Translations under genes and position numbers: made by a program | Shown here: positions 1-11,929 of the stretch, piece after piece | How positions within the stretch are numbered: the first letter of the stretch is position 1 | How the letters are laid out: the number at the start of each line of letters is the position of its first letter | The notes under the pieces: model-generated | Database searches by the model: none | The model's input: the letters and a program-made list of their open reading frames with translations, nothing else | Told to the model about the DNA's origin: nothing | DNA from: a virus | Direction: 5' to 3' (one strand) | Virus record (IMG/VR): IMGVR_UViG_3300045988_174472 | DNA: 39,665 nt

Positions 1-119
1 ATTTTTTTTTTGATATAATTAAAATTAGTTATAGGGTAAACCCATATTAATGTATCATCTATAAGTATATAAGCTGCCTATTTTGGTAGCCGTTATTATG
101 GTTCCATAACACTAGCCCA
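1..119. repeat. Terminal redundancy, left copy (circular-assembly overlap)
   Basis: Bases 1-119 (attttttttttgatataatt...cactagccca) recur exactly at 39547-39665. The match runs to the last base of the window, implying a circular unit of 39,546 bp. Confidence 0.9.
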
Positions 120-137
120 TGAGGGCTTTTTTATTTT
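26..137 (+). ncRNA. Candidate small RNA (promoter-to-terminator unit without ORF)
   Basis: Extended -10 TGATATAAT at 11-19, with no RBS or ORF downstream. Hairpins at gggtaaaccc 34-43, gctgcc/ggtagc 73-90 and ttatg-gttc-cataa 96-109. GC-stem terminator agccc-atga-gggct plus T-run at 114-137. Confidence 0.35.
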
Positions 138-175
138 TAAAATTATTATTTAATCTAATTTCTAGATTTTTGAAA

Positions 176-226
176 AAATAAAAAAAGTACTGTTTTATAA
201 ATATATGAAACAGTACTTTTTTATTT
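176..226. terminator. Bidirectional intrinsic terminator
   Basis: Stem gtactgttt (187-195) / aaacagtac (208-216), flanked by an A-run upstream and a T-run downstream. Confidence 0.6.
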
Positions 227-372
227 TTTAATATATATTTTTCTTATTATTTATAACTCTGCTTTTGAACTCCTTTTATGGTATAATGTTTTTTAGAGAA
301 ATTATAATCTAAGAGTGGGGTTTCATATATAGCCTTTGTTCCTGCGATAAGTAGGAAGGAGGTGTAAACTAT

Positions 373-528
373 ATGGAGCAAAAGAAGAAGATAATCATAA
401 CTGTTATAGTTATTCCAGTTATTATTGGTTTGGCTGTAAACTTTGTTTATGATAAAATAAAAAACCACTCTTACGGCAATAAGGGTGGCTTTCAAGTTGA
501 ATTCAACATAAAAGTTAAATTTGACTAA
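373..528 (+). CDS. Type I toxin-like small membrane peptide, copy 1 (51 aa)
   Basis: ATG at 373, TAA at 526-528; absent from the ORF track because it is under 60 aa. Translation MEQKKKIIITVIVIPVIIGLAVNFVYDKIKNHSYGNKGGFQVEFNIKVKFD has a hydrophobic helix and a Lys-rich tail. GGAGG at 358-362 and extended -10 TGGTATAAT at 279-287. Paralog of 1362..1526 and 4217..4396. Confidence 0.75.
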   Translation: MEQKKKIIITVIVIPVIIGLAVNFVYDKIKNHSYGNKGGFQVEFNIKVKFD

Positions 529-596
529 TATTATATTGTATATATAGAAATCACACTCTATTCCACTAGATTATAATTTCTCTTTTTTATTTCTAT
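457..596 (-). ncRNA. Candidate antisense antitoxin RNA, copy 1
   Basis: Minus-strand -10 TATAAT (plus-strand attata at 603-608), followed by the 5' module at 580->547. On the minus strand, hairpin 488-481/472-465 plus a T-run (plus-strand A-run 457-464) forms an intrinsic terminator inside the toxin ORF. The RNA is complementary to the 3' third of the toxin mRNA. Confidence 0.55.
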
Positions 597-679
597 GTTT
601 TTATTATACTACAAAATGCAGAAAAATACACAGTATATATTTTAATGTATTTTTTTCATATTATTATAATATATTTATA

Positions 680-859
680 CTATTCTTGAGTTTCCGATTT
701 AACAATTATTATTTTGCCATCTTCACAAACTACATCAATGAACTTATTTTCTTCATCAATTCCTAATTCTCTAACCATTGTTATTGGAAGAGTTAGCTTT
801 GCACTAACTCCACCATTACCACCTTTATTAAAATTTACTTTTAATCTTTTTTTACTCAT
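680..859 (-). CDS. AbrB/MazE/SpoVT-type looped-hinge-helix DNA-binding protein (59 aa)
   Basis: One residue short of the ORF-track cutoff. Translation MSKKRLKVNFNKGGNGGVSAKLTLPITMVRELGIDEENKFIDVVCEDGKIIIVKSETQE. The pattern G-rich loop, LTLP, (V/I)R.LGI is typical of SpoVT-AbrB domains. RBS is aggagat. Palindrome attgc-taat-gcaat lies upstream at about 907-925. Confidence 0.65.
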   Translation of the reverse strand: MSKKRLKVNFNKGGNGGVSAKLTLPITMVRELGIDEENKFIDVVCEDGKIIIVKSETQE

Positions 860-1140
860 TTTTAATCTCCTATAAAAATATTTGTAGAACTATATTTACT
901 ATTGCTAATGCAATTGATATTTTCACTAATTTATTTGTATCGTTCATAGTACATTGTGGTATAATGAAAGAAAACTTATCTAGTATAGTATTTACTATGC
1001 TAAGTATTTCTATCAAAAGAAGAATTCGAGCCGTCGCAAGTTCTGTGTTCTTCTTTTTTTCTTTTGTTTTCTTCTATTTGCCACTTTCTTCACCCTTCGT
1101 TTTTTAGTTTTCGGCATAGCTCTAATTATTTTATTTTGTT

Positions 1141-1204
1141 CATAAATTAATAAATGAACAAAATATACATTTATTAATGTTTTTTGTTCATTTATTAATT
1201 TATG
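1141..1204. repeat. Perfect 23-bp inverted repeat with 18-bp spacer
   Basis: cataaattaataaatgaacaaaa (1141-1163) is the exact reverse complement of ttttgttcatttattaatttatg (1182-1204). A nested alternative stem pairs 1133-1143 with 1154-1164. Confidence 0.9.
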
Positions 1205-1361
1205 AAATTTTGTTTTATTTATATAATAAAAACAAAGAAATGATTGAAGTATATAAAAACTTATATGGATATGATATAATAAATATAGGAATTTCAATTT
1301 ATAGAGTGGTGTTTCCATACTAAATATAAAGCCTACTTCTTAACGGAAGGAGGTGAGAAGT

Positions 1362-1526
1362 ATGGAACAAATGATAAATATTGTCATAGGTGCTATTTGC
1401 ACAATATGTCTTGGTCTATTGACTAACTACATATCCGACAAATTAAAAAGCCACTCTAGTTCTAGGAAAACTAAGAGTGGCGTGGAACTTGAAATAAAAA
1501 TCAAGTTCAAAATTACCAAAAATTAA
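1362..1526 (+). CDS. Type I toxin-like small membrane peptide, copy 2 (54 aa)
   Basis: Translation MEQMINIVIGAICTICLGLLTNYISDKLKSHSSSRKTKSGVELEIKIKFKITKN. GGAGG at 1349-1353, 8 nt before the ATG. Extended -10 TGATATAAT at 1272-1280. SD-sequestering hairpin cctacttc (1332-1339) / gaaggagg (1346-1353). Confidence 0.8.
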   Translation: MEQMINIVIGAICTICLGLLTNYISDKLKSHSSSRKTKSGVELEIKIKFKITKN

Positions 1527-1574
1527 AGTTTTGGAAACATCACTCTAGCGCAAATAGATTGAAGTTCCTTTTAT
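1442..1574 (-). ncRNA. Candidate antisense antitoxin RNA, copy 2
   Basis: Minus-strand -10 TATAAT (plus-strand attata at 1581-1586), with the 5' module at 1568->1533. Minus-strand terminator is gccactct (1450-1457) / agagtggc (1474-1481) followed by TTTTTAATT (plus-strand 1441-1449). It overlaps toxin codons about 28-54 and the 3' UTR. Confidence 0.6.
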
Positions 1575-1629
1575 ATTTATATTATACTACAAAATATATA
1601 AAAATAAACATTATATATTTAGTTATATT

Positions 1630-1944
1630 TTAATATATTTTTTTCTTATTATTTATAACTCTGCTTATAGTTGCTTTGCTCCAGCCTGTTTCATTCGATA
1701 TGTAACTATAACTTTTACCTTCATTTTTTAATTTTCTTATTTTATCTATATCCTTATCAGAAATTTGTTTCTGTTTACCTTGAAACTTTATGCTATTTTT
1801 TAAATTCTTATTTTCTATACTTAAAGAGTCGATGATCCTATTCTTTTCTTCTAACTGTTTCTCATAATATGAAACCATTTGATTATATTCTTTAATGTAT
1901 TTTCCAGTCCAATTATAATCATTTTTCTTTAGTTTCTTTAGCAA
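1630..1944 (-). CDS. Coiled-coil protein with C-terminal resolvase/Hin-type HTH (no recombinase catalytic domain)
   Basis: TTG start with RBS aaggtgg. C-terminus reads GKSYSYISNETGWSKATISRVI, an HTH_7/HTH_23-like motif. Its leader (1945-1973, minus strand) is a copy of the toxin 5' module. Confidence 0.6.
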   Translation of the reverse strand: MLKKLKKNDYNWTGKYIKEYNQMVSYYEKQLEEKNRIIDSLSIENKNLKNSIKFQGKQKQISDKDIDKIRKLKNEGKSYSYISNETGWSKATISRVINNKKKIY

Positions 1945-2111
1945 TGAAACACCACCTTTTATATTTTCAATTCTATAAGAAACTATTTCTATACAAGAAA
2001 CATCTAATCCTTTTGGTTAAGTTGTTTTTCTCTACTCGGATTTTTAGGTTTTCAAAAAAACATATATATGATATATTAAAAGGGACATTTTTTATACAAT
2101 TAATTTTTACA

Positions 2112-2150
2112 ATAAAAAGGCATATGATTAATCTCATATGCCTTTTTATT
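2112..2150. terminator. Intrinsic terminator (bidirectional)
   Basis: Stem ggcatatga (2119-2127) / tcatatgcc (2134-2142), with an A-run before and a T-run after. Confidence 0.6.
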
Positions 2151-2152
2151 AT

Positions 2153-2296
2153 CTAGTAAATTATTTCAAAGTTCCTACAATATATAATTGCATCTTCAGA
2201 TATACATAATACTTTACAATTATTCTTGCATTTTCTACAAGTATTAGATACAAAAAGATTATCTAATACTTCCTCAAAATATAACTGCTTCATCAT
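2153..2296 (-). CDS. Small Cys-rich protein (47 aa), function unknown
   Basis: Translation MMKQLYFEEVLDNLFVSNTCRKCKNNCKVLCISEDAIIYCRNFEIIY, with pattern CxxCxxxCxxxC...C. RBS aaggag. Lies directly downstream of 2306..2494. Confidence 0.45.
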   Translation of the reverse strand: MMKQLYFEEVLDNLFVSNTCRKCKNNCKVLCISEDAIIYCRNFEIIY

Positions 2297-2305
2297 AAAA
2301 ACTCC

Positions 2306-2494
2306 TTAATAAAATATATCATTTATATATTCAAGTAAATTTATAGATGCTTTACTCATTATATGTAATCCAAACATAACTATCATAATACCGATTAATA
2401 ACATCACTATTGATAATAAAATCCCTATCATAGTTCCTAATTTACCCTCTCTTTTTTCTAATCTTGCCATTGTATTTATGTATTTTAATATCAT
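2306..2494 (-). CDS. Small single-pass membrane protein (62 aa)
   Basis: The track ORF 2306..2566 is trimmed to the ATG at 2494, which follows RBS aaggagg. Translation MILKYINTMARLEKREGKLGTMIGILLSIVMLLIGIMIVMFGLHIMSKASINLLEYINDIFY contains one roughly 23-aa TM helix. Confidence 0.5.
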   Translation of the reverse strand: MILKYINTMARLEKREGKLGTMIGILLSIVMLLIGIMIVMFGLHIMSKASINLLEYINDIFY

Positions 2495-2652
2495 TGTATT
2501 TTCCTCCTTGAATTTTGCATCCAAGTGGTATATACTATTACTTGCGAGGGTAAAGGCATATTCCACTTTGGATGTGTCTTTTTTATTGTAATTATATTGT
2601 CTTAAGTCAGTAGAGTAGAGTGATACCTACTGACTTTTTACTTTTATTTTTA

Positions 2653-2901
2653 TTATTCGGGCATATCATCTTCCAGTTCATCTAACTTCTTAGTCAATGG
2701 ATCTATTTGTTTTTCAACAAACTTTTTATTATCATCAACGGTAATTTCAGATTTGCCTGATTGTCCTTTTAATCCTCTATATTCAGCTACTAAATATTCA
2801 ATAGCTGTGTTACGGCTTGATATGCCTTGACTTTTTTGTATATTCTCTATTTCATCCCATACAAAATCTTCCACATGTATTGTACTTGATTTTTTAGCCA
2901 A
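2653..2901 (-). CDS. parR: ParR-like ribbon-helix-helix centromere-binding adaptor
   Basis: 82-aa protein immediately downstream of the actin-like ATPase gene. The N-terminus (STIHVEDFVWDEIENI...SRNTAIEYLV) fits a strand-helix-helix, and the C-terminal tail is acidic. Confidence 0.6.
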   Translation of the reverse strand: MAKKSSTIHVEDFVWDEIENIQKSQGISSRNTAIEYLVAEYRGLKGQSGKSEITVDDNKKFVEKQIDPLTKKLDELEDDMPE

Positions 2902-2913
2902 ATTTTATACCTC

Positions 2914-3840
2914 CTAGAATTTTATCTTTGCAACTTCAAATAATCCTTTAGCAGTAGCTAATTGTGCATCTTCAACTCTTTTGAACTCTTCATCGAACTC
3001 TAAATTTATAGATGTTCCTCCTGCAACATATATATCCATTTCTGATTTATTTATCCAAATATCTTCTATTCTTTGAGCTAAATTTTCAGAACCTAATAAA
3101 TAAGCCTTTGCCTTTAAATCATCGTAGTCATTAGATGTATCTATTTCATTAACATCCTTCATTATATCGTTATTTCTTAATGAATCTTGCACAGTAGTTA
3201 ATAATGTTCTGTTACCAAATTCAATTGTATTTGACATCTTATCATTAAATGTAAACCCTTTGTCAAAATAAGATAATTCTGTAGTTCTAAATCCAACTGA
3301 AACTAATCCAACAGGTTTATCCTCATTTATTTTACCACCTATAGCATGTATTAAAGCTGCATCACCTTCTCTAAGTATAGAAATATTATTTATATAAACT
3401 TCCTTAGTTGATCCACTTATTTTATTTTTAACCTTTATAGTTTTACCTTTATATGTTTCTATAACTTCTTTTAAAACTGATTTTCTATAGTTTTTATAAG
3501 GTACTCCTAACATAACATCAACTTTATCTTTTACAGCTATCTCACTAAGTGCTGCTGCAAATAATACTTCTACAGTATGACTTGTTTTACTATCTCTTGA
3601 ATTTCTTACTGGTACTTGTGATTCTTTCTCAGCTAATAATCCAATAAAGTAATTTTCATTTTTGTATTCTATGTAGATAGGTTTCTCACTTTCTTTATTC
3701 ATGTATTCAGATAGATCTATATCTCTACCTTCTCCAATTACTGATTTAAAAACTGCAACATGTTCAATGTTATTTTCTTCAGAGTATGCCTTAACATAAC
3801 CTCTCCCAAAGTCTAGTCCAATTTTTTGAATATTTTCCAT
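2914..3840 (-). CDS. parM: Actin-like plasmid segregation ATPase (ParM/StbA/Alp family)
   Basis: N-terminal phosphate-1 motif IGLDFGRGYVKA. Later motifs VGLVSVGFRTTE and VAGGTS are typical of the actin/ParM fold. 308 aa, adjacent to a repeat array. Confidence 0.8.
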   Translation of the reverse strand: MENIQKIGLDFGRGYVKAYSEENNIEHVAVFKSVIGEGRDIDLSEYMNKESEKPIYIEYKNENYFIGLLAEKESQVPVRNSRDSKTSHTVEVLFAAALSEIAVKDKVDVMLGVPYKNYRKSVLKEVIETYKGKTIKVKNKISGSTKEVYINNISILREGDAALIHAIGGKINEDKPVGLVSVGFRTTELSYFDKGFTFNDKMSNTIEFGNRTLLTTVQDSLRNNDIMKDVNEIDTSNDYDDLKAKAYLLGSENLAQRIEDIWINKSEMDIYVAGGTSINLEFDEEFKRVEDAQLATAKGLFEVAKIKF

Positions 3841-3856
3841 TTTAATATATACCTCC

Positions 3857-4073
3857 GTTGATATGTTGTTGAGTTCTTGTTAACTCTAAAATAATTGTAT
3901 AATATTTTAGTTAAGATGTCAACAATACATTAACTATTTCTTTATCCTATCGTTGATATATTGTTGAGTTCTTGTTAATTCTAAAATAGTTACATAATAT
4001 TTTAATTAAGATATTAACAATATATCAACCATTTATACTTTTATCATTAATACATTGTTGAGTTCTTGTTAAT
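3857..4073. repeat. parC: parC-like centromere: three ~95-bp units with direct and inverted half-sites
   Basis: Core ttgttgagttcttgttaa occurs at 3866, 3961 and 4055. Inverted partners (gttaatgtattgttgacatcttaa-like) lie at about 3911-3935 and 4005-4030. The array is immediately upstream of parM. Confidence 0.7.
3894..3922 (-). promoter_or_regulatory. parMR promoter embedded in parC
   Basis: On the minus strand, TTGACA (3922-3917), a 17-nt spacer, then TACAAT (3899-3894), about 50 nt upstream of the parM ATG. Confidence 0.5.
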
Positions 4074-4167
4074 CATTTTTTTTAATTATTATAAAAAAAG
4101 ATATAGAAATTAGTCTATATCTCAAAAAATAAGTTTAAAACTCCATTTATTCTGCTATAATATAAAA

Positions 4168-4312
4168 TATAAAAGGAATTGAAATCTATTTAGCAGTAGA
4201 GTGATGTTCCTAAAAATTATTTTTTAGAATTTTTAAGATTAAAATTAAGTTCAAAAAATTTTAACTTAATTTTAATCTCTAAGCCACTCTCTCGCATAGA
4301 GTGGCTTTTTAA
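4168..4312 (+). ncRNA. Candidate antisense antitoxin RNA, copy 3
   Basis: Extended -10 TGCTATAAT at 4153-4161 and 5' module at 4175-4210. Terminator gccactct (4283-4290) / agagtggc (4298-4305) plus TTTTT at 4306-4310. Fully antisense to the 3' part of toxin 3. Confidence 0.6.
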
Positions 4313-4396
4313 TTTGTCAGATATATAATTAGTCGTTAGACCAAGACATATTGCACCAATAGCACTTATAATACCGACAATTATCTTTTGTTCCAT
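4217..4396 (-). CDS. Type I toxin-like small membrane peptide, copy 3 (59 aa)
   Basis: Translation MEQKIIVGIISAIGAICLGLTTNYISDKLKSHSMRESGLEIKIKLKFFELNFNLKNSKK. It shares ICLGL.TNYISDKLKSHS with copy 2. SD is ggaaggagg. Extended -10 TGATATAAT on the minus strand (plus-strand 4476-4484). Confidence 0.8.
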   Translation of the reverse strand: MEQKIIVGIISAIGAICLGLTTNYISDKLKSHSMRESGLEIKIKLKFFELNFNLKNSKK

Positions 4397-4540
4397 ACTT
4401 CCTCACCTCCTTCCTGCAAAGAAGTAGGTAAGTTCTTGAATGAAACACCACTCTATAGATTTCAATTCCTCTATTATTATATCATATACATATTGATAGT
4501 ACTATGTTTTATACTATTAACATAAAAAATAGAGTAGAGT

Positions 4541-4577
4541 AGTATTATATAGTTTACTCATACTCTTATTTTATTCA
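4541..4577. terminator. Terminator of the rep operon (bidirectional hairpin)
   Basis: Stem agagtagagta / tactcatactct. On the minus strand it is followed by attttttat. Confidence 0.55.
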
Positions 4578-4669
4578 AGTGTTTTTCCTACTAAGAAGTA
4601 ATGTCGAGTTATGTAATAGAGCAAAAAAGACTAATTTAAATAAGTTTTATAAAAGTTATCGATACAACT

Positions 4670-5026
4670 TTACTTTGTCCAATTAGATGGTATAAAATAT
4701 CCATTTTCTCTAGCATAATTTAAAACATAATCTTTTTGCTTATCATCATATTCATGCCATGCTCCAAAAACAGCATTATGATATGCTTCTTCACTACGTT
4801 CTCTTTTATTTTTAATATTTAAATTTTGTTCATTATTAGTATATTTAATTCCATTTTCTGGATAGTCAAACCAATCTGGATGCAAAGGCAACTTATTTTC
4901 TTCTGCATAATCAACTAATATCATTTGTATAGCTACATGTTTTTCTCTAAATTCAAGAGGGTGACTCATATAATACGAATATAAGTTATCGTTAGCGTTA
5001 TTTGCATGTTGTTGATTCATTTTCAT
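4670..5026 (-). CDS. Hypothetical protein co-transcribed with rep
   Basis: 118-aa ORF with RBS aggagaaatg context. It starts 24 nt downstream of the rep stop. No motif recognised. Confidence 0.6.
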   Translation of the reverse strand: MKMNQQHANNANDNLYSYYMSHPLEFREKHVAIQMILVDYAEENKLPLHPDWFDYPENGIKYTNNEQNLNIKNKRERSEEAYHNAVFGAWHEYDDKQKDYVLNYARENGYFIPSNWTK

Positions 5027-5049
5027 TTCTCCTTTCTCACTATATATAT

Positions 5050-6300
5050 TTATTTGAATTTATTTCTTTGCGATTCTTGTAGATGTCTTTCTAATTCTTC
5101 AGGCGTATAATTTAGAAAAGCCGCATTAACATTATGAGCTTTATTTTTTAGTGATCTCATTTCATACTCTTGTTTCTGCTTTGAAATTATTTCTTCTTTA
5201 GATTTTTCTTCTTCATTTTCATTATAGTACCTAGCTTTTACTCTTGTAACTGATTCATTTAAATTTTTTAAATCATTTATTTTATTTTTCAAAGTCCCTT
5301 TGAAATAATTATATGACTTTACTTTTATTTTTTCCTCATCATCTTTTTCTAATGTAATAGTTATAGATTCTTGTAATATTTTTTTATATTTATTGTCTTT
5401 AAAGTCATAATTGCTAAAATCATTTTTAAAATATTCTAGTGTTTTAGCTGTAAATAGCTTTTTATTAGGCACATAAAATACATCTTTAATATTATTAGTT
5501 TCAACAGTAGTTATATCTTCATTTTCTATGTCTTCTTTATTTACATTTTTTACTTCAATAATTGGATTATCAATAGTATTTTTAAAATATATCTTCTTTT
5601 CGAAATCATATATAGTAAATTTTATTTCATCTACCTTTCTTCCATTTTTTATTTCATCTATACTAACTTCCATATTACCAAGTTTATTAATTTCTTTTAT
5701 TGCTTGACTTAGAACTCTTTGCTTAAAATTTTTATACTCTGGATATTTATTTTCAACACCTAAAACAAATCTTAATTGATCTATTTTAAAGTTTTTTATT
5801 ATTGTCATATCTGTTCTACTCCATAATCTCAATAATTCATATAATCTCTGTGCATAAAAACTTTTAAACTTAGTTAATATTTCTAAATTTAAAGGTGCAT
5901 AAACTGTATAATCAATTAAATGCCTGTATAGTCTATCAGCAAGTTTTATTTTAAATGTTTCTTTATTTACATTATATTCACTACCAGCGATTAAATTGTA
6001 ATCACATTCGATAGTATCACCATCTTCTTTCTTTTCAAATTCCAAAGATGTTTGTTTTAAAATTTGTATAGTCTTTTTTATATTAGATAAAGTTCTTTGA
6101 TTTTTATTTGGTATAAGTTTTTTTAGATCTTCTAATTTTACAGTACAACTTAGTTCCCCATTTTTTTCTTTTTGCGCAGTTAATAGACAGTAATAAAATA
6201 TTCTATTTTGAATTGCTGTAACCTCATAAGATGTATGTACTAATTGTTTTGACTGCATTAATAAATCTAAACATTTATCATTTGATGTAATTTCGCTCAT
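5050..6300 (-). CDS. rep: Theta-type plasmid replication initiator (Rep_3/RepB-like)
   Basis: 416 aa. The N-terminal half has the Rep_3 pattern (QSKQLVHTSYEVTAIQNRIFYYCL ... YAQRLYELLRLW ... LRFVLGVENKYPEYKNFKQRVLSQAIKEINK). An iteron array lies directly upstream. Confidence 0.75.
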   Translation of the reverse strand: MSEITSNDKCLDLLMQSKQLVHTSYEVTAIQNRIFYYCLLTAQKEKNGELSCTVKLEDLKKLIPNKNQRTLSNIKKTIQILKQTSLEFEKKEDGDTIECDYNLIAGSEYNVNKETFKIKLADRLYRHLIDYTVYAPLNLEILTKFKSFYAQRLYELLRLWSRTDMTIIKNFKIDQLRFVLGVENKYPEYKNFKQRVLSQAIKEINKLGNMEVSIDEIKNGRKVDEIKFTIYDFEKKIYFKNTIDNPIIEVKNVNKEDIENEDITTVETNNIKDVFYVPNKKLFTAKTLEYFKNDFSNYDFKDNKYKKILQESITITLEKDDEEKIKVKSYNYFKGTLKNKINDLKNLNESVTRVKARYYNENEEEKSKEEIISKQKQEYEMRSLKNKAHNVNAAFLNYTPEELERHLQESQRNKFK

Positions 6301-6315
6301 AAAAACTCCCCTTTT

Positions 6316-6338
6316 TAGAGTATCAAATTGTTACCTTT
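6316..6338. promoter_or_regulatory. Solitary iteron over the rep RBS/promoter-proximal region (autoregulation site)
   Basis: tagagtatcaaattgttaccttt is identical to the array unit and lies 16 nt upstream of the rep ATG. Confidence 0.6.
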
Positions 6339-6485
6339 AAAATAAATATTTTTATTTTATATATTATAAAGAGTAATAGTTTGATCGATATTGTAATATT
6401 AAAAAGTTTAAAATTAATAAAATATTTTTTTCTTTATGACAATTATAGCTAAAAAAAAACTCTAAGGCAACAGTTTTTTTATTTT

Positions 6486-6604
6486 GTTACCTTTAGAGTA
6501 TCAAATTGTTACCTTTAGAGTATCAAATTGTTACCTTTAGAGTATCAAATTGTTACCTTAGAGTATCAAATTGTTACCTTAGAGTATCAAATTGTTACCT
6601 TTCG
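6486..6604. repeat. Iteron array (origin of theta replication): 5.5 tandem 21-22-bp units
   Basis: Unit gttacctttagagtatcaaatt occurs three times (6486, 6508, 6530). Unit gttaccttagagtatcaaatt occurs twice (6552, 6573). A partial unit follows. The units are contiguous with no spacers. Confidence 0.85.
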
Positions 6605-6644
6605 TTTGTTGTAATTAAGTAATACCAATAGTTTTAGCATTCCC

Positions 6645-6674
6645 TAAATACTATTAAATACTATTAAATACTAT
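6645..6674. repeat. 3 x 10-bp tandem repeat taaatactat next to the iterons
   Basis: Exact copies at 6645, 6655 and 6665. Possibly an origin-auxiliary or unwinding element. Confidence 0.8.
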
Positions 6675-6733
6675 TTATATATAAAGAAAGTATATTTTTC
6701 TAAAATTTTCTTCTCAAAAAACAATAATTATTT

Positions 6734-7363
6734 TTATTTCATAGTTCTAAAAACACCAGTTGCTATACCAATAATATCTACTTGAGAACTATCTAATATA
6801 ATTGGCTCCATAAAATCATTTTCAGGTTGAAGTTTAATTTTATCTCCTTCTTTAAAAAATCTTTTAACTGTAGGATATTTTTTGTACAAAAGAGCAAGAA
6901 CTATTTCTCCATTAAAGGCTACATTTTTTTTATCAACTATTAAGTAGTCTCCGTTTAACATTCCTGCATTAACCATACTATCTCCCTTAATTTGAAAAAT
7001 AAAATTATTTCGACCTTTTATTAAATTGGAAGGTAATGGTATATGTTCTTTAATATTATTTTCTGACAACATTGATTGTTCAATAGATACTTGGTCAACT
7101 AAAGGTAATCCAATAATATTATCATCTGATGCTCTTTTGCATCCATCTAATACTTCAATAGCTCTAGGTTTAGTAGGATCTTTCCTTATGTATCCTAAAT
7201 ATTCAAGTTTGCTTAGGTGCGAATGTACAGTTGATGGAGATTTCAACCCAACGGCACCACATATCTCTCTGATTGAAGGTGGGTAGCCTTTATCTAACAT
7301 ACATTGTTTAATAAAATATAAAATTTGCTCTTGTTTATAACTTAACTCTGGATTTTTAAACAT
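6734..7363 (-). CDS. LexA-like repressor (winged-helix N-domain plus S24 peptidase domain) with a non-canonical cleavage site
   Basis: N-terminus reads KGYPPSIREICGAVGLKSPSTVHSHLSKLEYLGYIRKDPTKPRAIEV. Catalytic GDS129M and VK167RF are present. The linker reads VDQVSIEQS where LexA proteins have G.VxAG.P. Confidence 0.8.
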   Translation of the reverse strand: MFKNPELSYKQEQILYFIKQCMLDKGYPPSIREICGAVGLKSPSTVHSHLSKLEYLGYIRKDPTKPRAIEVLDGCKRASDDNIIGLPLVDQVSIEQSMLSENNIKEHIPLPSNLIKGRNNFIFQIKGDSMVNAGMLNGDYLIVDKKNVAFNGEIVLALLYKKYPTVKRFFKEGDKIKLQPENDFMEPIILDSSQVDIIGIATGVFRTMK

Positions 7364-7481
7364 TAAAAAACACTCTCCTAAAAATATATTTCAAACGTTT
7401 ATTTTATTTTTAAAAACAAAAATAGAACTAAAAAATTAAAAATAAAATAAAATATTGTAAAAATCTTACATTTATATTATT

Positions 7482-7534
7482 ATAATAAATGAAAATAATC
7501 GAACTGTCAAATTTATGTTCGAGAAAAGTCGAAC
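7482..7534 (-). promoter_or_regulatory. Promoter of the LexA-like gene with CGAAC/GTTCG half-sites
   Basis: On the minus strand, TTGACA (7510-7505), 17 nt, then TATTAT (7487-7482). CGAAC at 7500-7504 and GTTCG at 7517-7521 bracket the -35. A third CGAAC lies at 7530-7534. Confidence 0.5.
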
Positions 7535-7654
7535 GGAATTATTTAAAACGATTTTAAACAATAAAAAATAAAGTTAAGTATAAAACATCGAAAAAAGTAA
7601 AAGAAAGCCTTATAAGGGGCAAATTTTGGATATTTTTCATATTTAGGAGGAATT

Positions 7655-7774
7655 ATGAAAGAAGAAATAAAAAAAGAAATAATTGATATTATTATAAATA
7701 TAGATAATTTTAAACTATTAAAAAAAATAAAGTTTATGCTAATTGGAATAGTTGGGATAAAAATAAAGAGCTAG
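7655..7774 (+). CDS. Small amphipathic peptide (39 aa), unknown
   Basis: Strong RBS taggagg 5 nt before the ATG. Translation MKEEIKKEIIDIIINIDNFKLLKKIKFMLIGIVGIKIKS. The stop codon lies inside the shared terminator hairpin. Confidence 0.4.
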   Translation: MKEEIKKEIIDIIINIDNFKLLKKIKFMLIGIVGIKIKS

Positions 7775-7793
7775 ATAATATATCTAGCTCTTT
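7765..7793. terminator. Bidirectional terminator between convergent genes
   Basis: Perfect 13-bp stem aaagagctagata / tatctagctcttt with a 3-nt loop, and A/T runs on both sides. Confidence 0.7.
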
Positions 7794-8140
7794 ATTTTAC
7801 TTACAAACTTTTCTATGAATATCCAATCTTCATCATCTAATTTTAGCATCTCTTCTATAACTTTTTTCTTAAAACTATCTTCTTCTGCCACTAATTTACC
7901 TACCAAAATGTTAAATTCATCATCTTTTGTAAGTTCTGAAAAAATATCACCTTCTCCAGTTTCTAGCCAAACTTGATTAATGTTATAAGTAGAGCATATA
8001 TCATCTATATTTCGAGCTGTAAGATTAACTCGTCCTTTTTCTAAATTAGATATATGAGATTCGCTTAAGTTTAGGTTTTCACCGAATTTTTTTTGTGTAA
8101 GATTTAATTTTTTTCTTGCTTGTTTTATTCTATTATTCAT
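7784..8140 (-). CDS. XRE-family (cI-type) repressor
   Basis: N-terminal HTH_3: IKQARKKLNLTQKKFGENLNLSESHISNLEKGRVNLT. Divergent from the early operon. Confidence 0.75.
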   Translation of the reverse strand: MNNRIKQARKKLNLTQKKFGENLNLSESHISNLEKGRVNLTARNIDDICSTYNINQVWLETGEGDIFSELTKDDEFNILVGKLVAEEDSFKKKVIEEMLKLDDEDWIFIEKFVSKIKS

Positions 8141-8236
8141 TTTATCACCTTATTTATACAATAACATAAAAACTTTTAAAATAAAAGAAAAAATATTGAA
8201 AAAGATAAAAAGCGACAAAAAAAGACAAAAAAACTA

Positions 8237-8265
8237 TTGATATAAAAGTTATATCAATATATAAT
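8237..8265 (+). promoter_or_regulatory. Early rightward promoter with overlapping palindromic operator
   Basis: TTGATA (8237-8242), 17 nt, then TATAAT (8260-8265). Palindrome ttgatataa-aag-ttatatcaa at 8237-8257 covers the -35 and spacer. Confidence 0.6.
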
Positions 8266-8301
8266 CTTTTATATTAAAAGAAATTGAAAGGAGAATATTT
8301 T

Positions 8302-8472
8302 ATGACAATAGAAGAAAAAGAAAAAATTTTAAGAAATATTTTTAATAAAACAGATATTATAGATGAAAAAGATAAACCATCAATAATTGCATACATAAGA
8401 GGAACATCTGATACAAGAGAAAGAATAGTATCAGAAAATAAAGCAAAAGGTGAATGTACTAAAAAGGTGTGA
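8302..8472 (+). CDS. First early-operon protein (cro position), unknown
   Basis: Track ORF trimmed to the ATG at 8302, which follows RBS aaaggag. 56 aa with no clear HTH. Confidence 0.5.
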   Translation: MTIEEKEKILRNIFNKTDIIDEKDKPSIIAYIRGTSDTRERIVSENKAKGECTKKV

Positions 8473-8512
8473 TATCAACTAAAAATAATACATCCAAAAA
8501 AACTTAATAGAT

Positions 8513-8555
8513 ACAAGTCCGTTAAATGGTTCGGTGAGCCTTTTAACGGGCTTGT
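8513..8555. other. GC-enriched 13-bp-stem hairpin upstream of the HUH Rep gene (candidate nick-site/dso hairpin or attenuator)
   Basis: Stem caagtccgttaaa (8514-8526) / tttaacgggcttg (8542-8554), including one G-T pair, with a 15-nt loop tggttcggtgagcct. No T-run follows. Confidence 0.45.
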
Positions 8556-8649
8556 AATAAGTATTAACTTTAGGACAAAAATAATAGATTAAATATAAAA
8601 ATAAATGATTTAAAAAGTTGTTTGTAAGGAGATAAAAAAGTGATGTAAC

Positions 8650-9537
8650 ATGAGCAAAGTTTTGAGAAAAAAATATATAGAAAGTGATTATGAAAGACTA
8701 CATACAAGATTAGTAGAAGAAGGCATATGTGAAACTGAATTAGATAGCATAGTTGATGTTAGAAGTGGATGTATATATGATACAAAAACAATCACATCAG
8801 GAACTATGAGAGAAGTTGAAGTATTTCCTATGTATCTAAAAAAAGATATGCCTGATGAATGGAGATTAAAAAATACAAGAGAAGCACAGAAAAATCTAAA
8901 TAATAAAAATGCTATTAAAAACTTTACTAGAAAATTAAATATGAATTTTGTTAAAGGTGATTATTATTTAACTCTAGAGTACTTAAATAAATATCTACCA
9001 AAGGATCACAATGAAGCTAAAAAACAAATGCATAAATATATAAGACGCTTAAATTATTTATACATGAAAATTCAACTAGCGAATGGAGCTCCTAAGAAGA
9101 AAATAAAAAGAATTAAGTATATGTTTATCACGGAACACTCAGATGTTAAAAAGATAAGATGTCATCATCATATGGTACTTGAAGCAGTATTACCTATAGA
9201 AGTAGTTGAAAGAGAATGGAAATTTGGAAATAGAACCAAAATAAGTTTTCTATCTCCTGATGATATGGGATTAACTGGACTAGCTATATATCTATCAAAA
9301 GATCCTAAAGGTAAGAAAAGATGGTGTTGTAGTAAAAATCTAAAAAATCCTGAAATCACAAGAAACTTAACAAAATTCAGTAAAAAGAAAGTTAGAGAAA
9401 TAGTTAATAATCAAAATCTAATTAAGTATGAAATGGAAAAAAATAATCCTGGATATATATTTGTAGATGCTCAAGTTTACATCAATGAATTTAATGGAAT
9501 GCCTTACATATATGCTAGAATGCGGAAAATAAACTGA
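8650..9537 (+). CDS. HUH-superfamily rolling-circle replication initiator
   Basis: Motif I YYLTLEY (aa 105-111), motif II RCHHHMVLE (HHH at 172-174), motif III LAIY214LSK217. The SD aaggag (8626-8631) is followed by a start-stop mini-ORF GTG-ATG-TAA (8640-8648) just before the ATG at 8650. Confidence 0.6.
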   Translation: MSKVLRKKYIESDYERLHTRLVEEGICETELDSIVDVRSGCIYDTKTITSGTMREVEVFPMYLKKDMPDEWRLKNTREAQKNLNNKNAIKNFTRKLNMNFVKGDYYLTLEYLNKYLPKDHNEAKKQMHKYIRRLNYLYMKIQLANGAPKKKIKRIKYMFITEHSDVKKIRCHHHMVLEAVLPIEVVEREWKFGNRTKISFLSPDDMGLTGLAIYLSKDPKGKKRWCCSKNLKNPEITRNLTKFSKKKVREIVNNQNLIKYEMEKNNPGYIFVDAQVYINEFNGMPYIYARMRKIN

Positions 9538-9562
9538 TAAAGTTTAAAAAGTGAGGATAAAA

Positions 9563-9745
9563 ATGAACATAAGGGTAGAAGAATTAGAGTTAGAAGCTAA
9601 TCAAAGAATACTTGATGATATGAAGGAGCTACTAGATAAATATGCTCTTAAATATATGAATACAAGCGCATTTATGACAATCAATAAATGTGTAGATGAA
9701 TTGGTTTACGTGGAACAATACACTAGGTTAAAGGAAGTTATATAA
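9563..9745 (+). CDS. Hypothetical early protein (60 aa)
   Basis: Track ORF trimmed to the ATG after RBS gtgaggataaaa. Confidence 0.5.
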   Translation: MNIRVEELELEANQRILDDMKELLDKYALKYMNTSAFMTINKCVDELVYVEQYTRLKEVI

Positions 9746-9767
9746 AAGAAAGTGGGGGAAAAATTTA

Positions 9768-10487
9768 ATGAATAAATTAATGATATTTGAAAATAAGAGA
9801 GTTGAAGTGCTTGAGTTAAATGGTCAGATATTATTTAACCCATATCATTGTGGAGAATGTTTAGGACTTGCTGAAAGTTCAGTAAGAGATGCATTAAGAA
9901 AGATGAATAATAAACAAGTTATAAAATTAAGGAATTTAGATGTTGATAATACCGACATCCGAAAATTAAACAATGCAGGAGAAAATTTTTTAACTGAAAG
10001 TGGAGTATACAAACTGATATTTAAATCTAGAAAAGAAGAAGCTGAAAGATTTCAAGACTGGGTAACAGATGAAGTACTTCCAAGTATAAGACAAACAGGT
10101 GTATACGAAGTAAAAGGATTATCAAAAGAACTACAAGCTATATTTGCAATAGATAAAAAACAACAACAAATGGAAGTAAAAGTTGATTATTTATATAATC
10201 ACATGACTATAGACTATGAACAACAAGAAAACTTAAATCAATTAGCAAGGAGCAGAGCAGTAGATCTTCTTGGAGGGAAAGCATCTCCAGCATATAAAAG
10301 GGTAAGTAAAAAGTTGTTTTCAGAATTATGGAGAGATTATAAAAGATACTTTGGAGTAAATAGTTACAAGAATACAGCTAGAAAAGAATATGAGAATGCT
10401 AGAGAGTATTTAATCAAATGGAGTCCTTCAACCAATCTTAGAATAGAAATAGAAGCTATAAATGGACAATTTTCATTTGTTGAATAG
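9768..10487 (+). CDS. Bro-N / ORF6C-type phage antirepressor
   Basis: Bro-N pattern FENKRVEVLELNGQILF...LTESGVYKLIFKSRKEEAERFQDWVTDEVLPSIRQTG. The C-terminal half resembles KilAC/ORF6C domains. Confidence 0.75.
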   Translation: MNKLMIFENKRVEVLELNGQILFNPYHCGECLGLAESSVRDALRKMNNKQVIKLRNLDVDNTDIRKLNNAGENFLTESGVYKLIFKSRKEEAERFQDWVTDEVLPSIRQTGVYEVKGLSKELQAIFAIDKKQQQMEVKVDYLYNHMTIDYEQQENLNQLARSRAVDLLGGKASPAYKRVSKKLFSELWRDYKRYFGVNSYKNTARKEYENAREYLIKWSPSTNLRIEIEAINGQFSFVE

Positions 10488-10497
10488 GAGGATAAAA

Positions 10498-10572
10498 ATG
10501 AACACATTTATAAGGTTTATGAGTATCTATATATTAACTTATTTAGCTGTGTCTTACATAATGTGCAAGTAG
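10498..10572 (+). CDS. Possible 24-aa hydrophobic peptide
   Basis: RBS taggaggataaaa before the ATG. Translation MNTFIRFMSIYILTYLAVSYIMCK. Confidence 0.3.
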   Translation: MNTFIRFMSIYILTYLAVSYIMCK

Positions 10573-10582
10573 GAGATTGAAT

Positions 10583-10735
10583 ATGGAGGAAACTAGAGTG
10601 ATATTTACATTATCATGTAAATGTTGTGATGATAAGCAAAATATATTAGTTGATAAAAATAGAGCAATAAAGCTAGAAAAAATAAAAAATGAAATTATAT
10701 GTGACAAGTGCATAGAAAAAAGGAGATTGAAATGA
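10583..10735 (+). CDS. Small zinc-ribbon-like protein (50 aa)
   Basis: RBS aggagattgaat. Translation MEETRVIFTLSCKCCDDKQNILVDKNRAIKLEKIKNEIICDKCIEKRRLK (CxCC...CxxC). Its stop overlaps the next start (ATGA). Confidence 0.45.
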   Translation: MEETRVIFTLSCKCCDDKQNILVDKNRAIKLEKIKNEIICDKCIEKRRLK

Positions 10736-11757
10736 TAATTCATAGATATATAACTCACGTATTATCAAAAGTATCAGATGAACCGATATTAAATGATTTT
10801 GAGGGTAATATAAATCCTCAGATAGATAAGTTTTTACAAAGCATTATAAAGAAAGTAAGCAAAGATGATTTATTAAGAAGAGCTAAATTTGATAATACAA
10901 AAGATTGTATAGTTAGAGATTGCTGTGAATCTATAATACGCAATGAAGAGACATTTATAGAAAACTCAAAAGAAATAGCAGCATATTTATTTGACATAAT
11001 GAAATTAGATTCAGATGCAGATTCATGTGATTTAGTTATATGCTTATATACAGTTAAAGATCAATATAGAGTAGCAATAATAAAGTTAGATTATAGAGCA
11101 GCATATAATCGTTCAATAGAATTTGAGGATGATAAGTTTAATATACAAATGAAGTTAAATGAAGAATTAATATCAGATACTAAGAAACCGAAGCAATGTG
11201 CATTAGTAGGTATCAGTAGCTTAAATAGCGAGTATGACTTAGAAATACTAGATAAAGATTCTGAAAAAGAAAATATTAGCTCTAAGTTTATAAATGACTT
11301 CTTAGAAGCTTATAAGATAGATGATGATTCATATAAGACTAAAGTATTCATTGCATCAGTTAAAGCGTGTCTATCAAATGCGTGGATAAAGGATAGACAT
11401 ATAGTAAACTTAATAAAATGCGATAGAGCTATGGAAGTACTAGAACATATTGCGTTAAATAATTCAGTTATAGATGTAAAAGAAATAGCAGATGAAATAT
11501 TCAATAGCCATGAAGATAAAGAGCTTAAATATAACTTTATAGAGCGTTTTAAAAAGAATGATATATCTAGATTCAATATAGATAAAAAAGTAGCTGAAAA
11601 AATGCTAAATAATAGGAATATCAAAACTAATACGGGCATTAAAATATCAGCTAAATTAGATGATATTAGAAATAACTTAAACTTCACTATAAAAGAAAAT
11701 GATGAAGGAACGTATGACTTGATAGTAAAAAACGTTGAGTTTGTAGAGGTGGATTAA
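10732..11757 (+). CDS. Nucleoid-associated protein, NdpA/YejK-like (tentative)
   Basis: Start moved to the ATG after RBS aaggagattgaa. The N-terminus MIIHRYITHVL...PILNDF...KFLQSIIKKV...RAKF matches my recollection of the NA37 family pattern. Confidence 0.45.
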   Translation: MIIHRYITHVLSKVSDEPILNDFEGNINPQIDKFLQSIIKKVSKDDLLRRAKFDNTKDCIVRDCCESIIRNEETFIENSKEIAAYLFDIMKLDSDADSCDLVICLYTVKDQYRVAIIKLDYRAAYNRSIEFEDDKFNIQMKLNEELISDTKKPKQCALVGISSLNSEYDLEILDKDSEKENISSKFINDFLEAYKIDDDSYKTKVFIASVKACLSNAWIKDRHIVNLIKCDRAMEVLEHIALNNSVIDVKEIADEIFNSHEDKELKYNFIERFKKNDISRFNIDKKVAEKMLNNRNIKTNTGIKISAKLDDIRNNLNFTIKENDEGTYDLIVKNVEFVEVD

Positions 11758-11919: not shown

Positions 11920-11929
11920 AATAATACAT

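Follow-up and report, generated by a model that had tools for sequence, protein, structure and literature searches.

A putative type I toxin-antitoxin module of the CD0956.2/RCd10 group near the partition and replication genes of a phage-plasmid

Organization of the locus

The stretch of viral DNA analysed here (the window; 39,665 nucleotides, IMG/VR record IMGVR_UViG_3300045988_174472) carries genes for ParM, two Rep proteins, a repressor, a terminase, a portal protein and head proteins, and is by its gene content a ~40-kb phage-plasmid. Towards one end of the window, a terminator scan places a bidirectional terminator at 181..222, a 19-bp perfect hairpin lying between A- and T-runs, which would insulate the cassette that follows against transcription from upstream. 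The plus-strand promoter of this cassette is an extended -10 element, TGGTATAAT, located by motif search at 279..287, and transcription probably starts at about A295. The predicted fold divides the resulting 78-nt 5' UTR (295..372) into leader box a (298-311), leader box b (312-324), an anti-AUG segment (324-332, defined by fold and covariation) and a hairpin (~332-362) that would sequester the Shine-Dalgarno (SD) sequence. The SD itself, GGAGG, was found by motif search at 358-362, and is separated by a 10-nt spacer from the ATG codon at 373 of the toxin ORF, which the ORF list extends over 373..528.

The 51-aa product has a putative transmembrane (TM) helix at residues 7-25, the segment with the best 19-aa hydropathy (2.88), followed by a basic tail. 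This is the plan of the clostridial family discussed below, in which toxins of 30-56 aa have an N-terminal TM segment and a charged, Lys-rich C-terminus, and are translated from an mRNA with a long 5' UTR (~80-90 nt) and a sequestered ribosome binding site. Across 64 distinct peptides of the family, the median TM hydropathy is 2.36 and the median tail charge is +4; the tail of the window peptide contains 5 K in 25 residues and 3 D/E, giving a net charge of +2. A 51-codon ORF is by itself no rarity. The C-terminal motif EFNIKVKF is specified by a conserved hairpin near the 3' end of the ORF (499..522), which is 92.3% paired, has 2 compensatory pairs and shows plus-strand G.U bias. Box b' (547-560) and box a' (567-583) follow in the 3' UTR, where they would pair with leader boxes b and a, respectively, and a T-run at 584-593 marks the probable 3' end of the toxin mRNA.

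The predicted antisense gene is convergent with the toxin gene, has its own promoter, overlaps the toxin gene at its 3' end and stops, by its sequence, at a rho-independent terminator. Its -10 element, TATAAT (603..608, minus strand, motif search), would direct initiation at about A596, and the predicted antitoxin RNA (456..596, minus strand, ~135-141 nt, MFE -33.5) folds into three hairpins, the last of which is the terminator. The terminator hairpin, at 465..489 with a U-run behind it at 464-454, is the 3'-most hairpin of the predicted fold, and its plus strand encodes KNHSYGNKGG. Across homologous modules, pairing in this helix amounts to 91.7%, two pairs being compensatory, and its non-Watson-Crick pairs favour the minus strand by 7 to 2. 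In this cassette, designated cassette 1, a C.A mismatch lies at the centre of the terminator stem and the antisense -10 has no TG extension, and because of these two features its antitoxin output could be weaker than that of the paralogues described below. Both cassette promoters were missed by a consensus promoter scan, the reason being that neither has a good -35 element.

Most of this arrangement had been proposed in an earlier reading made from the letters of the DNA alone (the sequence-only reading). The positions that it gave for the extended -10, the SD, the toxin ORF and the convergent TATAAT are exact, and the ORF encodes the very peptide that it quoted. Its hairpin and T-run inside the ORF, put at 488-457, correspond to the predicted antisense 3' end, with the refined limits given above. 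A leader is present as claimed, with a computed length of 78 rather than about 75 nt, and the hydrophobic helix stands, whereas the tail described as Lys-rich is just moderately so. In the case of the antisense RNA, overlap with the toxin gene is borne out, but its extent is not the last third of the ORF: the predicted RNA is fully complementary to the last 71 nt (458-528), or ~45%, and to the entire 3' UTR.

Two further cassettes are present in the window. Cassette 2 (1272..1586, plus strand) has a toxin -10 at 1272-1280, an SD at 1349-1353, a 54-aa ORF at 1362-1526 and, on the minus strand, an antisense -10 at 1586-1581 for a putative RNA of ~1574-1441. Cassette 3 (4153..4484) is in the minus orientation, its toxin -10 occupying 4484-4476 and its 59-aa ORF 4396-4217, and its antisense promoter, TGCTATAAT, lies on the plus strand at 4153-4161, upstream of a putative RNA of ~4168-4314. 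In-frame indels distinguish the three paralogues, and their antisense regions are just 61-66% identical. The cassettes flank ParM, a parC-like sequence and the Rep region, and syntenic ~40-kb contigs bear the same cassette. A fossil at 241-264, derived from the neighbouring gene, suggests that the cassette and its flank were duplicated together. The parallel drawn in the sequence-only reading with CRISPR-adjacent loci does not extend to this element, as no CRISPR-like array was found in the 39.7-kb window; CRISPR adjacency is a feature of a subset of C. difficile loci, and so is not strictly defining.

Relationship to the clostridial type I toxins

Comparison with profile models of clostridial type I toxins, a check suggested by the sequence-only reading, gave a significant match of the 51-aa peptide to the NCBIfam model NF047374 (E 1.5e-5), yet its score of 25.3 bits is below the curated (equivalog) cutoff of 60 bits. 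Two matches to NF047374 were reported, at E 1.5e-5 and 7e-7, and the CD0956.2 peptide of C. difficile, identified like CD0956.3 through published primers (JP660, JP663), scores 97.5 bits against the same model. The window peptide thus reads as related, in divergent form, to the C. difficile type I toxin family and not as an equivalog. A Pfam search gave no match for it. A tblastn search with the peptide returned nothing at E<=0.01 from a phage collection and just marginal matches (E 0.1-0.5) from plasmids, a short query of this kind being underpowered in Gb-scale databases. Megablast of window positions 1-12000 against phages gave no match, no Rfam antitoxin RNA family was matched at the gathering score, and the Rfam matches at E<=1 in positions 1-5000 were at chance level.

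At the level of the whole module, the relationship is more extensive. At least 21 non-redundant modules, CD0956.2/RCd10 included, align in register with all parts kept, that is, with promoters, leader, ORF, antisense terminator and 3' UTR. They come from Romboutsia, Paraclostridium, Terrisporobacter, Tepidibacter, Peptostreptococcaceae MAGs, plasmids and IMG/VR viral contigs. Among the 21, TGnTATAAT is near-invariant at the toxin -10, and ATTATA is kept at the antisense -10 columns in nearly all aligned modules. The DNA at 448-496 of the window is 88% identical to that of the C. difficile phages phiCD146 and AR1074-1. Toxin orthologues are 69-96% identical, and of 53 unique homologous cassettes whose flanks could be used, 49 have an open toxin frame and four a disrupted one; pseudogenised members of the family include L018, L022, L024 and L025. 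Many independent ~40-kb gut metagenome contigs carry the same cassette at 96-99% identity with the frame open. Close orthologues differ by too few substitutions for a codon-position test to be informative. Chimeric toxins show recombination among modules.

The closest experimentally characterized counterparts are the C. difficile modules CD0956.2/RCd10 and CD2907.1/RCd9 (also CD2517.1/RCd8; Maikova et al. 2018, PMC5961336), with leaders of 83-88 nt, mRNAs of 298-306 nt and antisense RNAs of 134 nt, against 78, ~295 and ~140 nt here. For CD0956.2/RCd10 itself, a 5' UTR of 83 nt, an mRNA of 298 nt and an RCd10 of 134 nt have been reported (PMC5961336). The published starts fall 6 nt past both conserved -10 boxes, the RCd10 end falls on the U-run after the ORF hairpin, and in the alignment these mapped ends occupy the same columns as the window features. 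Also common to the window module and this group are an antisense terminator within the ORF at the K(S/N)HS...K(S/G)G codons, a toxin 3' end at the antitoxin start, a TM toxin of 50-53 aa with a basic tail ending in ExxFKIKF, a location on prophages or other mobile elements, and DNA that aligns in register. The differences are that the window peptide and CD0956.2 have unrelated N-terminal halves (MEQKKKIIITVIVIP... here, MNNFLLNVIAG... there), that the window peptide scores 25 bits where the cutoff is 60, that no CRISPR array adjoins the module, and that the host would be an uncultured gut member or relative of the Peptostreptococcaceae rather than C. difficile.

A second set of relatives consists of CD0956.3/RCd14 and CD0904.1/RCd13 (34-35 aa; Peltier et al. 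2020, PMC7699646), in which the segment (F/Y)(I/V)YDKIKNH(S/P).(A/G)NK(S/G)G is near-identical; the core motif YDKIKNHS..NK(S/G)G is common to the peptide assigned as CD0956.3 and to other 34-35-aa toxins of C. difficile-type contigs. These modules and their phage and plasmid homologues are phage- or plasmid-borne, their antisense terminator DNA is 88% identical to that of the window, and plasmid stabilisation has been demonstrated for the type (PMC7699646). Their toxins stop just past the hairpin, whereas the window peptide adds the tail FQVEFNIKVKFD, like the 53-aa class, and their box a differs in sequence from that of the window cassette. For homologues in general, toxicity, membrane location, rescue by the cognate antisense RNA, RNA duplex formation and plasmid stabilisation have been reported, with half-lives of 89 min for the toxin mRNA and 8 min for the antitoxin (PMC5961336, PMC7699646, bioRxiv 10.1101/2020.03.04.976019). 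More distant parallels are TxpA/RatA and BsrG/SR4 of B. subtilis, which likewise have a convergent antisense RNA over the 3' end of the ORF, a sequestered SD, a location on a prophage or the skin element, and degradation of the duplex, but which belong to another peptide family with no sequence homology (PMC5961336, PMC6563280).

Taken singly, the motifs of the cassette are at chance level, with 11 copies of TGNTATAAT against 7.7 expected and 14 promoter-like sites against 16.5. The ordered ensemble of parts far exceeds chance, because the same order recurs in the two window paralogues and in the 21 homologous modules, and because both RNAs fold better than shuffled sequences (z = -7.8 for the toxin mRNA and -5.1 for the antisense RNA, with none of 200 shuffles equal). 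The type I architecture that the sequence-only reading likened to that of C. difficile prophages matches the characterized modules part for part, a reading supported by the agreement of the mapped CD0956.2/RCd10 ends, the NF047374 match and the 88% DNA identity. It is therefore very probable that window positions 279-611 are a working toxin-antitoxin module of type I, homologous to the CD0956.2/RCd10 group, and that the ~40-kb phage-plasmid has three such modules, orthogonal to one another, flanking its partition and replication region. Such a module is of a kind already described, the plasmid or phage addiction type in which a membrane toxin is silenced by a convergent antisense RNA, and constitutes no new class of system.

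Structure and covariation of the toxin mRNA

The two ends of the toxin transcription unit contain a 17-nt perfect inverted repeat (295-311/567-583), and the MFE structure of the toxin mRNA is closed by a helix between its 5' and 3' ends. This closing helix, of ~29 bp, is conserved and covarying, with helix a:a' paired at 96.6% (6 of 14 pairs compensatory) and helix b:b' at 92.1% (5 of 15). The covariation score was 0.281 against 0.160 in shuffles, and was reached by none of 500 shuffles, a comparison that overstates independence since the sequences are related. At the non-Watson-Crick positions of the closing helix, plus-strand G.U outnumbers A.C by 45 to 6, a bias that indicates selection on the toxin transcript rather than on the DNA. 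The fold survey covered 26 homologous modules, one of which could not be parsed. In the 25 parsed modules, the closed mRNAs are 245-328 nt and the antisense RNAs 102-158 nt long, the latter ending in a discrete hairpin and U-run in most cases. The mapped CD0956.2 mRNA also has a 5' end complementary to its 3' end.

Within the closed structure, pairing probabilities are 0.84 for the SD and 0.93 for the AUG codon, and the anti-AUG helix is 91.7% paired, with a C-G to U-A covariation. A local-hairpin model, in which a pairs with b and b' with a', accounts for just 72-77% pairing, and the long-range model was preferred. An alternative helix between leader box b and the 5' arm of the ORF hairpin would be 86% paired, with no covariation. 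For each of the peptide motifs KNHS..K(S/G)G and E(L/F)x(I/F)K(I/V)KF, the codons form an RNA hairpin. In silico, binding of the antisense RNA leaves the accessibility of the SD unchanged.

Mechanism and competing explanations

These features suggest a mechanism in which the extended -10 would start a ~295-nt toxin mRNA that is locked in an inert and stable form, with local helices masking the SD and AUG, and with the ~29-bp helix tying the first ~30 nt (boxes a and b) to the last ~37 nt (boxes b' and a'); an mRNA with its ends closed in this way is predicted to be stable. The convergent promoter (608-603) would yield an antisense RNA of ~140 nt that ends at the hairpin within the ORF. By homology with the tested C. 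difficile modules, this RNA may be abundant and short-lived, and may pair over ~140 bp with the toxin mRNA towards its 3' end, the duplex leading to degradation. In the folding model, decay is a likelier outcome of duplex formation than any exposure or masking of the ribosome binding site, because SD accessibility does not change upon binding. If the element were lost, the antisense RNA would decay first, the long-lived mRNA would be translated, and the 51-aa TM peptide would halt growth, with the net outcome that the phage-plasmid is stabilised.

A similar principle operates in hok/sok of plasmid R1 and AapA1/IsoA1 of H. pylori, where the full-length mRNA is locked by a 5'-3' helix with its translation signals masked, and where the function is post-segregational killing (for references see PMC8594479 and PMC5961336). 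The long-distance lock and masked signals predicted here resemble those systems, which show no homology to the window module and in which an mRNA already processed at its 3' end is bound by the antisense RNA in its 5' region, whereas the target here would include the 3' arm of the closing helix.

A more specific version of this model is offered tentatively, at somewhat less than even probability. The closing helix may act as a module-specific barcode, with the toxin leader and the 5' end of the antitoxin competing for one arm in the 3' UTR; the toxin mRNA and the antitoxin RNA open with near-identical stretches of ~30 nt, and thus the two could compete for this arm in a strand-displacement switch. 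The toxin mRNA would use this 3' arm for its terminator region, too. In this view, the conserved peptide motifs KNHS..K(S/G)G and ExxFKIKF would be a side effect of hairpin formation in the RNA, and such dual coding may make the conserved hairpin a recombination hot spot at which N-terminal/leader halves of toxins are shuffled with C-terminal/antitoxin halves. A barcoded closing helix is not described in the literature examined, where only predicted structures are given ("data not shown" or a supplementary figure).

The same set of parts could serve mainly in abortive infection, superinfection exclusion or dormancy, with the toxin freed on phage infection or stress rather than for post-segregational killing. 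Several functions have been proposed for type I systems, the C. difficile family is tied to CRISPR arrays and SigB stress control (PMC5961336, PMC6563280), and a single element here carries three non-identical copies with divergent antisense regions. This role is nevertheless rather unlikely, given that the cassettes flank the ParM, parC-like and Rep region, that homologous modules stabilise plasmids and a prophage (PMC7699646), and that neither a CRISPR array in the window nor, on inspection by eye, a SigB-type -35 was found. It is unlikely, too, that the a/a' and b/b' repeats are a property of the DNA, either as terminal inverted repeats of a mobile cassette or as promoter-proximal regions kept alike by gene conversion. 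The repeats do coincide with both transcription starts, so that both RNAs open similarly, and the chimeric toxins and the fossil at 241-264 suggest recombination and duplication of modules. Against this stand the excess of G.U over A.C, the poor pairing of the local-hairpin alternatives, the complementary ends of the CD0956.2 mRNA, and the closure of the MFE structure by this helix in all 25 parsed modules.

Loss of toxin activity or antitoxin expression from a decaying cassette 1 is improbable; the mismatched terminator stem, the non-extended antisense -10 and the occurrence of pseudogenes in the family are compatible with decay, but every part is intact, and the frame is open in the many independent gut contigs at 96-99% identity. 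The 82-aa minus-strand ORF (247..495), although the longest of the region in the ORF list, has very little chance of being the true gene, as it would traverse the SD, leader and promoter of the toxin gene, has no Pfam or NCBIfam match and no counterpart in cassettes 2 and 3, and is broken by a stop codon in orthologues of 96% identity (L001-L006 and L030) that still have the toxin frame open. Its dismissal as spurious in the sequence-only reading was thus justified.

The addiction module preferred here would place three unannotated toxin genes, with their antisense RNAs, among the possible accounts of how a family of ~40-kb gut phage-plasmids is maintained. It also indicates that the C. difficile type I family reaches, in divergent form, across the mobile elements of the Peptostreptococcaceae, where such members fall below the curated HMM threshold and are missed by standard gene callers, and the comparative data yield a testable RNA model of a 5'-3' lock, SD/AUG masking and dual-coding hairpins. 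In the phiCD146 record and in one P. bifermentans plasmid record, the homologous region is likewise unannotated.

Cassette 1 and its paralogues

The candidate type I toxin-antitoxin (TA) module at window positions 279-611 (cassette 1) is real and was interpreted correctly in the sequence-only reading; it is a divergent member of a known toxin family, and the kind of system is not new. Every coordinate assigned to it is right when read in window 1-1500 and in the ORF list, and the 51-aa peptide quoted is the exact translation of the toxin ORF. By sequence reading, the extended -10 toxin promoter TGGTATAAT lies at 279-287 (+) and the SD GGAGG at 358-362 (+), and the ORF list places the ATG at 373 and the stop codon at 526-528 (+). 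The convergent antisense promoter has the -10 TATAAT at 603-608 (-), where the plus strand reads ATTATA, and the antisense hairpin GCCACCCTT-ATTGCCGT-AAGAGTGG at 489-465 (-) is directly followed by TTTTTTATTTT at 464-454 (-). An 82-aa minus-strand ORF, already judged spurious, was rejected as a gene: orthologues of 96% identity are interrupted by a stop codon, the ORF matches no family, and the paralogues lack it.

The single motifs of cassette 1 are not enriched, so the case rests on their conserved arrangement. The TGNTATAAT motif occurs 11 times in the window versus 7.7 expected, and a sigma-70 scan of the window returned 14 sites versus 16.5 expected, listing neither cassette 1 promoter because neither has a good -35. 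Codon-position comparison of the 51-aa ORF found few substitutions among close orthologues.

Searching the window with the 51-aa peptide (tblastn) identified two further copies, each within a complete paralogous type I TA cassette: cassette 2 at 1272-1586 (+), with a 54-aa toxin ORF at 1362-1526 (+; E 1.5e-8), and cassette 3 at 4153-4484 (-), with a 59-aa toxin ORF at 4396-4217 (-; E 2.6e-7). Both have the part order of cassette 1, namely an extended -10 TGATATAAT, a leader with AGGAAnTnnAATCTA then TAGAGTGGTGTTTC, followed by GGAAGGAGGTG, an ORF with AAAAGCCACTCT-loop-AGAGTGGC, and a 3' UTR in which both leader boxes recur as reverse complements, then a T-run and a convergent TATAAT. All ORF indels among the three are multiples of three. 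The antisense regions are only 61-66% identical to one another (common runs of 8-18 nt) and cross-protection in C. difficile is limited to near-identical antitoxins (PMC6563280); by this rule the three cassettes are probably orthogonal.

Upstream of cassette 1, a 19-bp perfect hairpin with A- and T-runs on both sides (181-222) is a bidirectional terminator separating the cassette from the upstream region, and a second terminator-like hairpin is present at 114-127. The 24 nt at 241-264 are 100% identical to 1643-1666, the last codons (SRVINNK) of the HTH_38 gene (1630..1944, -) that follows cassette 2, suggesting a fossil of a duplicated cassette-plus-HTH unit.

Relationship to the C. difficile CD0956.2/RCd10 modules

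Several of the homologous IMG/VR loci are C. difficile prophage regions. Primers JP660 and JP663, whose sequences are in the supplement of PMC7699646, match C. difficile prophage loci exactly, and the partner primers JP659 and JP664 have no match to these loci; we assign the 53-aa peptide to CD0956.2 and the 34-aa peptide to CD0956.3 from primer landing and peptide length rather than from a bracketed amplicon. The NCBIfam model NF047374 (CD_typeI_toxin) scores the assigned CD0956.2 peptide at 97.5 bits and the three window peptides at 25.3 (cassette 1), 29.5 and 17.9 bits (E 1.5e-5, 7e-7 and 3e-3), all below the 60-bit cutoff.

For CD0956.2 and CD2907.1, the 5' UTR is 83 nt and the mRNA 298 nt, the antitoxin TSS coincides with the mRNA 3' end, and the major antitoxin RNA is 134 nt with a rho-independent terminator at its end (Maikova et al., PMC5961336). 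Mapped onto the CD0956.2 cassette recovered here, these lengths put the toxin TSS 6 nt after TGTTATAAT, the antitoxin TSS 6 nt after TGGTATAAT, and the antitoxin 3' end on the U-run after the ORF hairpin. In 27- and 21-module alignments these columns align with the window's features, which together with the sub-cutoff NF047374 match bears out the type I reading. By homology, the cassette 1 toxin mRNA would run from ~295 to ~590 with a UTR of 78 nt, and the antitoxin RNA from ~596 to ~456, covering the entire 3' UTR and 71 nt (45%) at the end of the toxin ORF; the overlap proposed earlier thus stands, but not its extent of one third. Likewise, the likeness to C. difficile modules holds but the CRISPR-adjacent setting does not, with no CRISPR array found in the window.

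With a DNA query starting at window position 150, positions 448-496 (YDKIKNHSYGNKGGFQ codons) match phages phiCD146 and AR1074-1, as well as C. difficile plasmids, at 88% identity, and 442-632 match P. bifermentans plasmids at ~70%; the records of phiCD146 and P. bifermentans leave the homologous stretch unannotated. The phiCD146 locus (L048; NC_028958.1 29211-30454) has a 35-aa toxin cassette, then the remnant C-terminal half of a second toxin (a hairpin plus ...WEFDLKIKFKK), and also a second antisense-type promoter.

A word-indexed protein search found 11 metagenomic peptides of 69-97% identity, one of which lies on at least 21 human-gut contigs of 20-50 kb that are syntenic with the window, with the same 59-aa neighbour, HTH_38 gene and ParM-like ALP_N gene. 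Pattern scans found 20 loci in IMG/VR and 21 in GTDB genomes (Romboutsia, Paraclostridium, Terrisporobacter, Tepidibacter and Peptostreptococcaceae MAGs, with one locus of 98% identity on a "Tyzzerella" MAG contig). Among 1.84 billion representative proteins, only 25 clusters were returned by a profile search at E<=1e-3, consistent with under-calling of small ORFs.

A frameshift in homologues had been named as something that would count against the cassette. Of the 53 unique homologous cassettes that have usable flanks, 49 keep the frame open; the four clearly disrupted are two without a start codon, one with a premature stop and one with a frameshift. In 64 distinct peptides, the N-terminal half varies in sequence but keeps its hydrophobicity (median 17-aa hydropathy 2.36), and the tail is basic throughout (median net charge +4). 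Loci L018, L022, L024 and L025, from Tepidibacter, Clostridium sp. and Romboutsia timonensis, have become pseudogenes through in-frame stops or a frameshift, with the flanking RNA boxes mostly intact. Four metagenomic peptides (P0007-P0010) are chimeras of two cassette types: the N-terminal half comes from one and the C-terminal half from the other, with the junction exactly at the conserved DKIKNHS hairpin, which suggests recombination at the antisense terminator.

Predicted structure of the toxin and antisense RNAs

The predicted cassette 1 toxin mRNA folds at -90.5 kcal/mol versus -53.8 +/- 4.7 for shuffles (z = -7.8) into a closed form in which nt 1-35 pair with the 3' end, and the predicted antisense RNA (-33.5 kcal/mol, z = -5.1) forms three hairpins, the terminator last. 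A 17-nt perfect inverted repeat (295-311/567-583), with counterparts in cassettes 2 and 3, was found by repeat search. Across 21 modules, helix a:a' (298-311 with 567-583 in cassette 1) is 96.6% paired with compensatory changes at 6/14 pairs, helix b:b' (312-324 with 547-560 in cassette 1) is 92.1% paired (5/15), and the ORF hairpin, the predicted antisense terminator, is 91.7% paired (2/8). The covariation score is 0.281 versus 0.160 shuffled, a value reached by 0/500 shuffles. Slid controls pair at 37-47%, and a local hairpin at each mRNA end, considered in place of the long-range helix, pairs at only 72-77%. All 25 parsable modules have an MFE structure with 18-34 pairs between the first 40 and the last 55 nt, and in most of them a discrete hairpin plus U-run forms the end of the antisense RNA.

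The non-Watson-Crick cells of a:a' and b:b' on the plus strand comprise 45 G.U and only 6 A.C; this bias indicates that the closing helix is selected on the toxin transcript, not on DNA. In the ORF hairpin the bias is reversed (7 to 2), which is what selection for terminating the antisense RNA would predict. Both sets of counts are drawn from related sequences and lack phylogenetic independence.

Part of the leader forms a helix with the region around the start codon (CCATAC:GTATGG or CATATAG:CTATATG); this helix is 91.7% paired and shows covariation from C-G to U-A. The codons for the C-terminal E(L/F)x(I/F)K(I/V)KF motif lie in a further conserved hairpin, 92.3% paired. The ORF hairpin, at its 5' arm and A-run (457-473), is also complementary to leader box b (AGAGTGG..., 310-326), with counterparts in cassettes 2 and 3; this pairing, at 86% across the family with no covariation, could be metastable or alternative. 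The SD has a pairing probability of 0.4-1.0 across the 25 parsed modules. For eight modules considered more closely, the value in the full-length mRNA is 0.53-1.0, and removing or blocking the 3' end in silico hardly alters it; thus the antisense RNA probably works via duplex-dependent decay rather than altered SD access.

Proposed mechanism and element context

Among homologues, the peptide is membrane-associated and toxic, rescue is by the cognate antisense RNA only, toxin mRNA and antisense RNA form a duplex, the mRNA has a long half-life (89 min) and the antitoxin a short one (8 min), and modules stabilise plasmids and a prophage (PMC5961336, PMC7699646, bioRxiv 10.1101/2020.03.04.976019). 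For cassette 1, sequence and comparison show the parts, their order, homology and the conserved helices; by analogy, we infer a membrane-associated toxic peptide, cognate-only rescue, an RNA duplex, a stable mRNA with a labile antitoxin, and element stabilisation. The 5'-3' lock, with masking of the SD and AUG, would keep the toxin mRNA stable but poorly translated, and the antisense RNA, which resembles the toxin leader at its 5' end, would invade the 3' arm and lead to decay. On loss of the element, the labile antisense RNA would disappear, resulting in killing. Only the proposed comparative RNA model, with its barcoded 5'-3' helix and dual-coding hairpins, may exceed published work.

PHROG matches identify a ParM-like partition protein (2914-3840), two replication initiators, a LexA/CI-like repressor, a large terminase, a portal protein and a major head protein. 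At the DNA level, Rep and ParM share 69-81% identity with plasmids of P. sordellii, P. bifermentans, C. difficile and C. perfringens, and thus, as judged from gene content, the window is a phage-plasmid; its G+C is 27.6%, and its host is probably a gut Peptostreptococcaceae member. The three cassettes lie on either side of the partition and replication region.

A 59-aa ORF (680-859, -) with a weak MazE/AbrB-like match (PF04014, E 0.016) is convergent with cassette 1 and is kept beside it in syntenic metagenome contigs. A second extended -10 TGGTATAAT at 957-965 (+) is followed after ~50 nt by a AAGAAGAA...TTCTTCTT hairpin and a T-run (to 1065), and 957-1065 (+) could be a small RNA gene; the 101-aa minus-strand ORF (1013..1318) that overlaps it and extends into the cassette 2 leader looks spurious. 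Adjoining the ParM-like gene, a 95-bp repeat (2.3 copies, 3856-4073) may be a parC-like centromere, and a 22-bp repeat near the Rep gene (5050..6300), with 5.5 copies and 97% matches at 6484-6602, resembles iterons.
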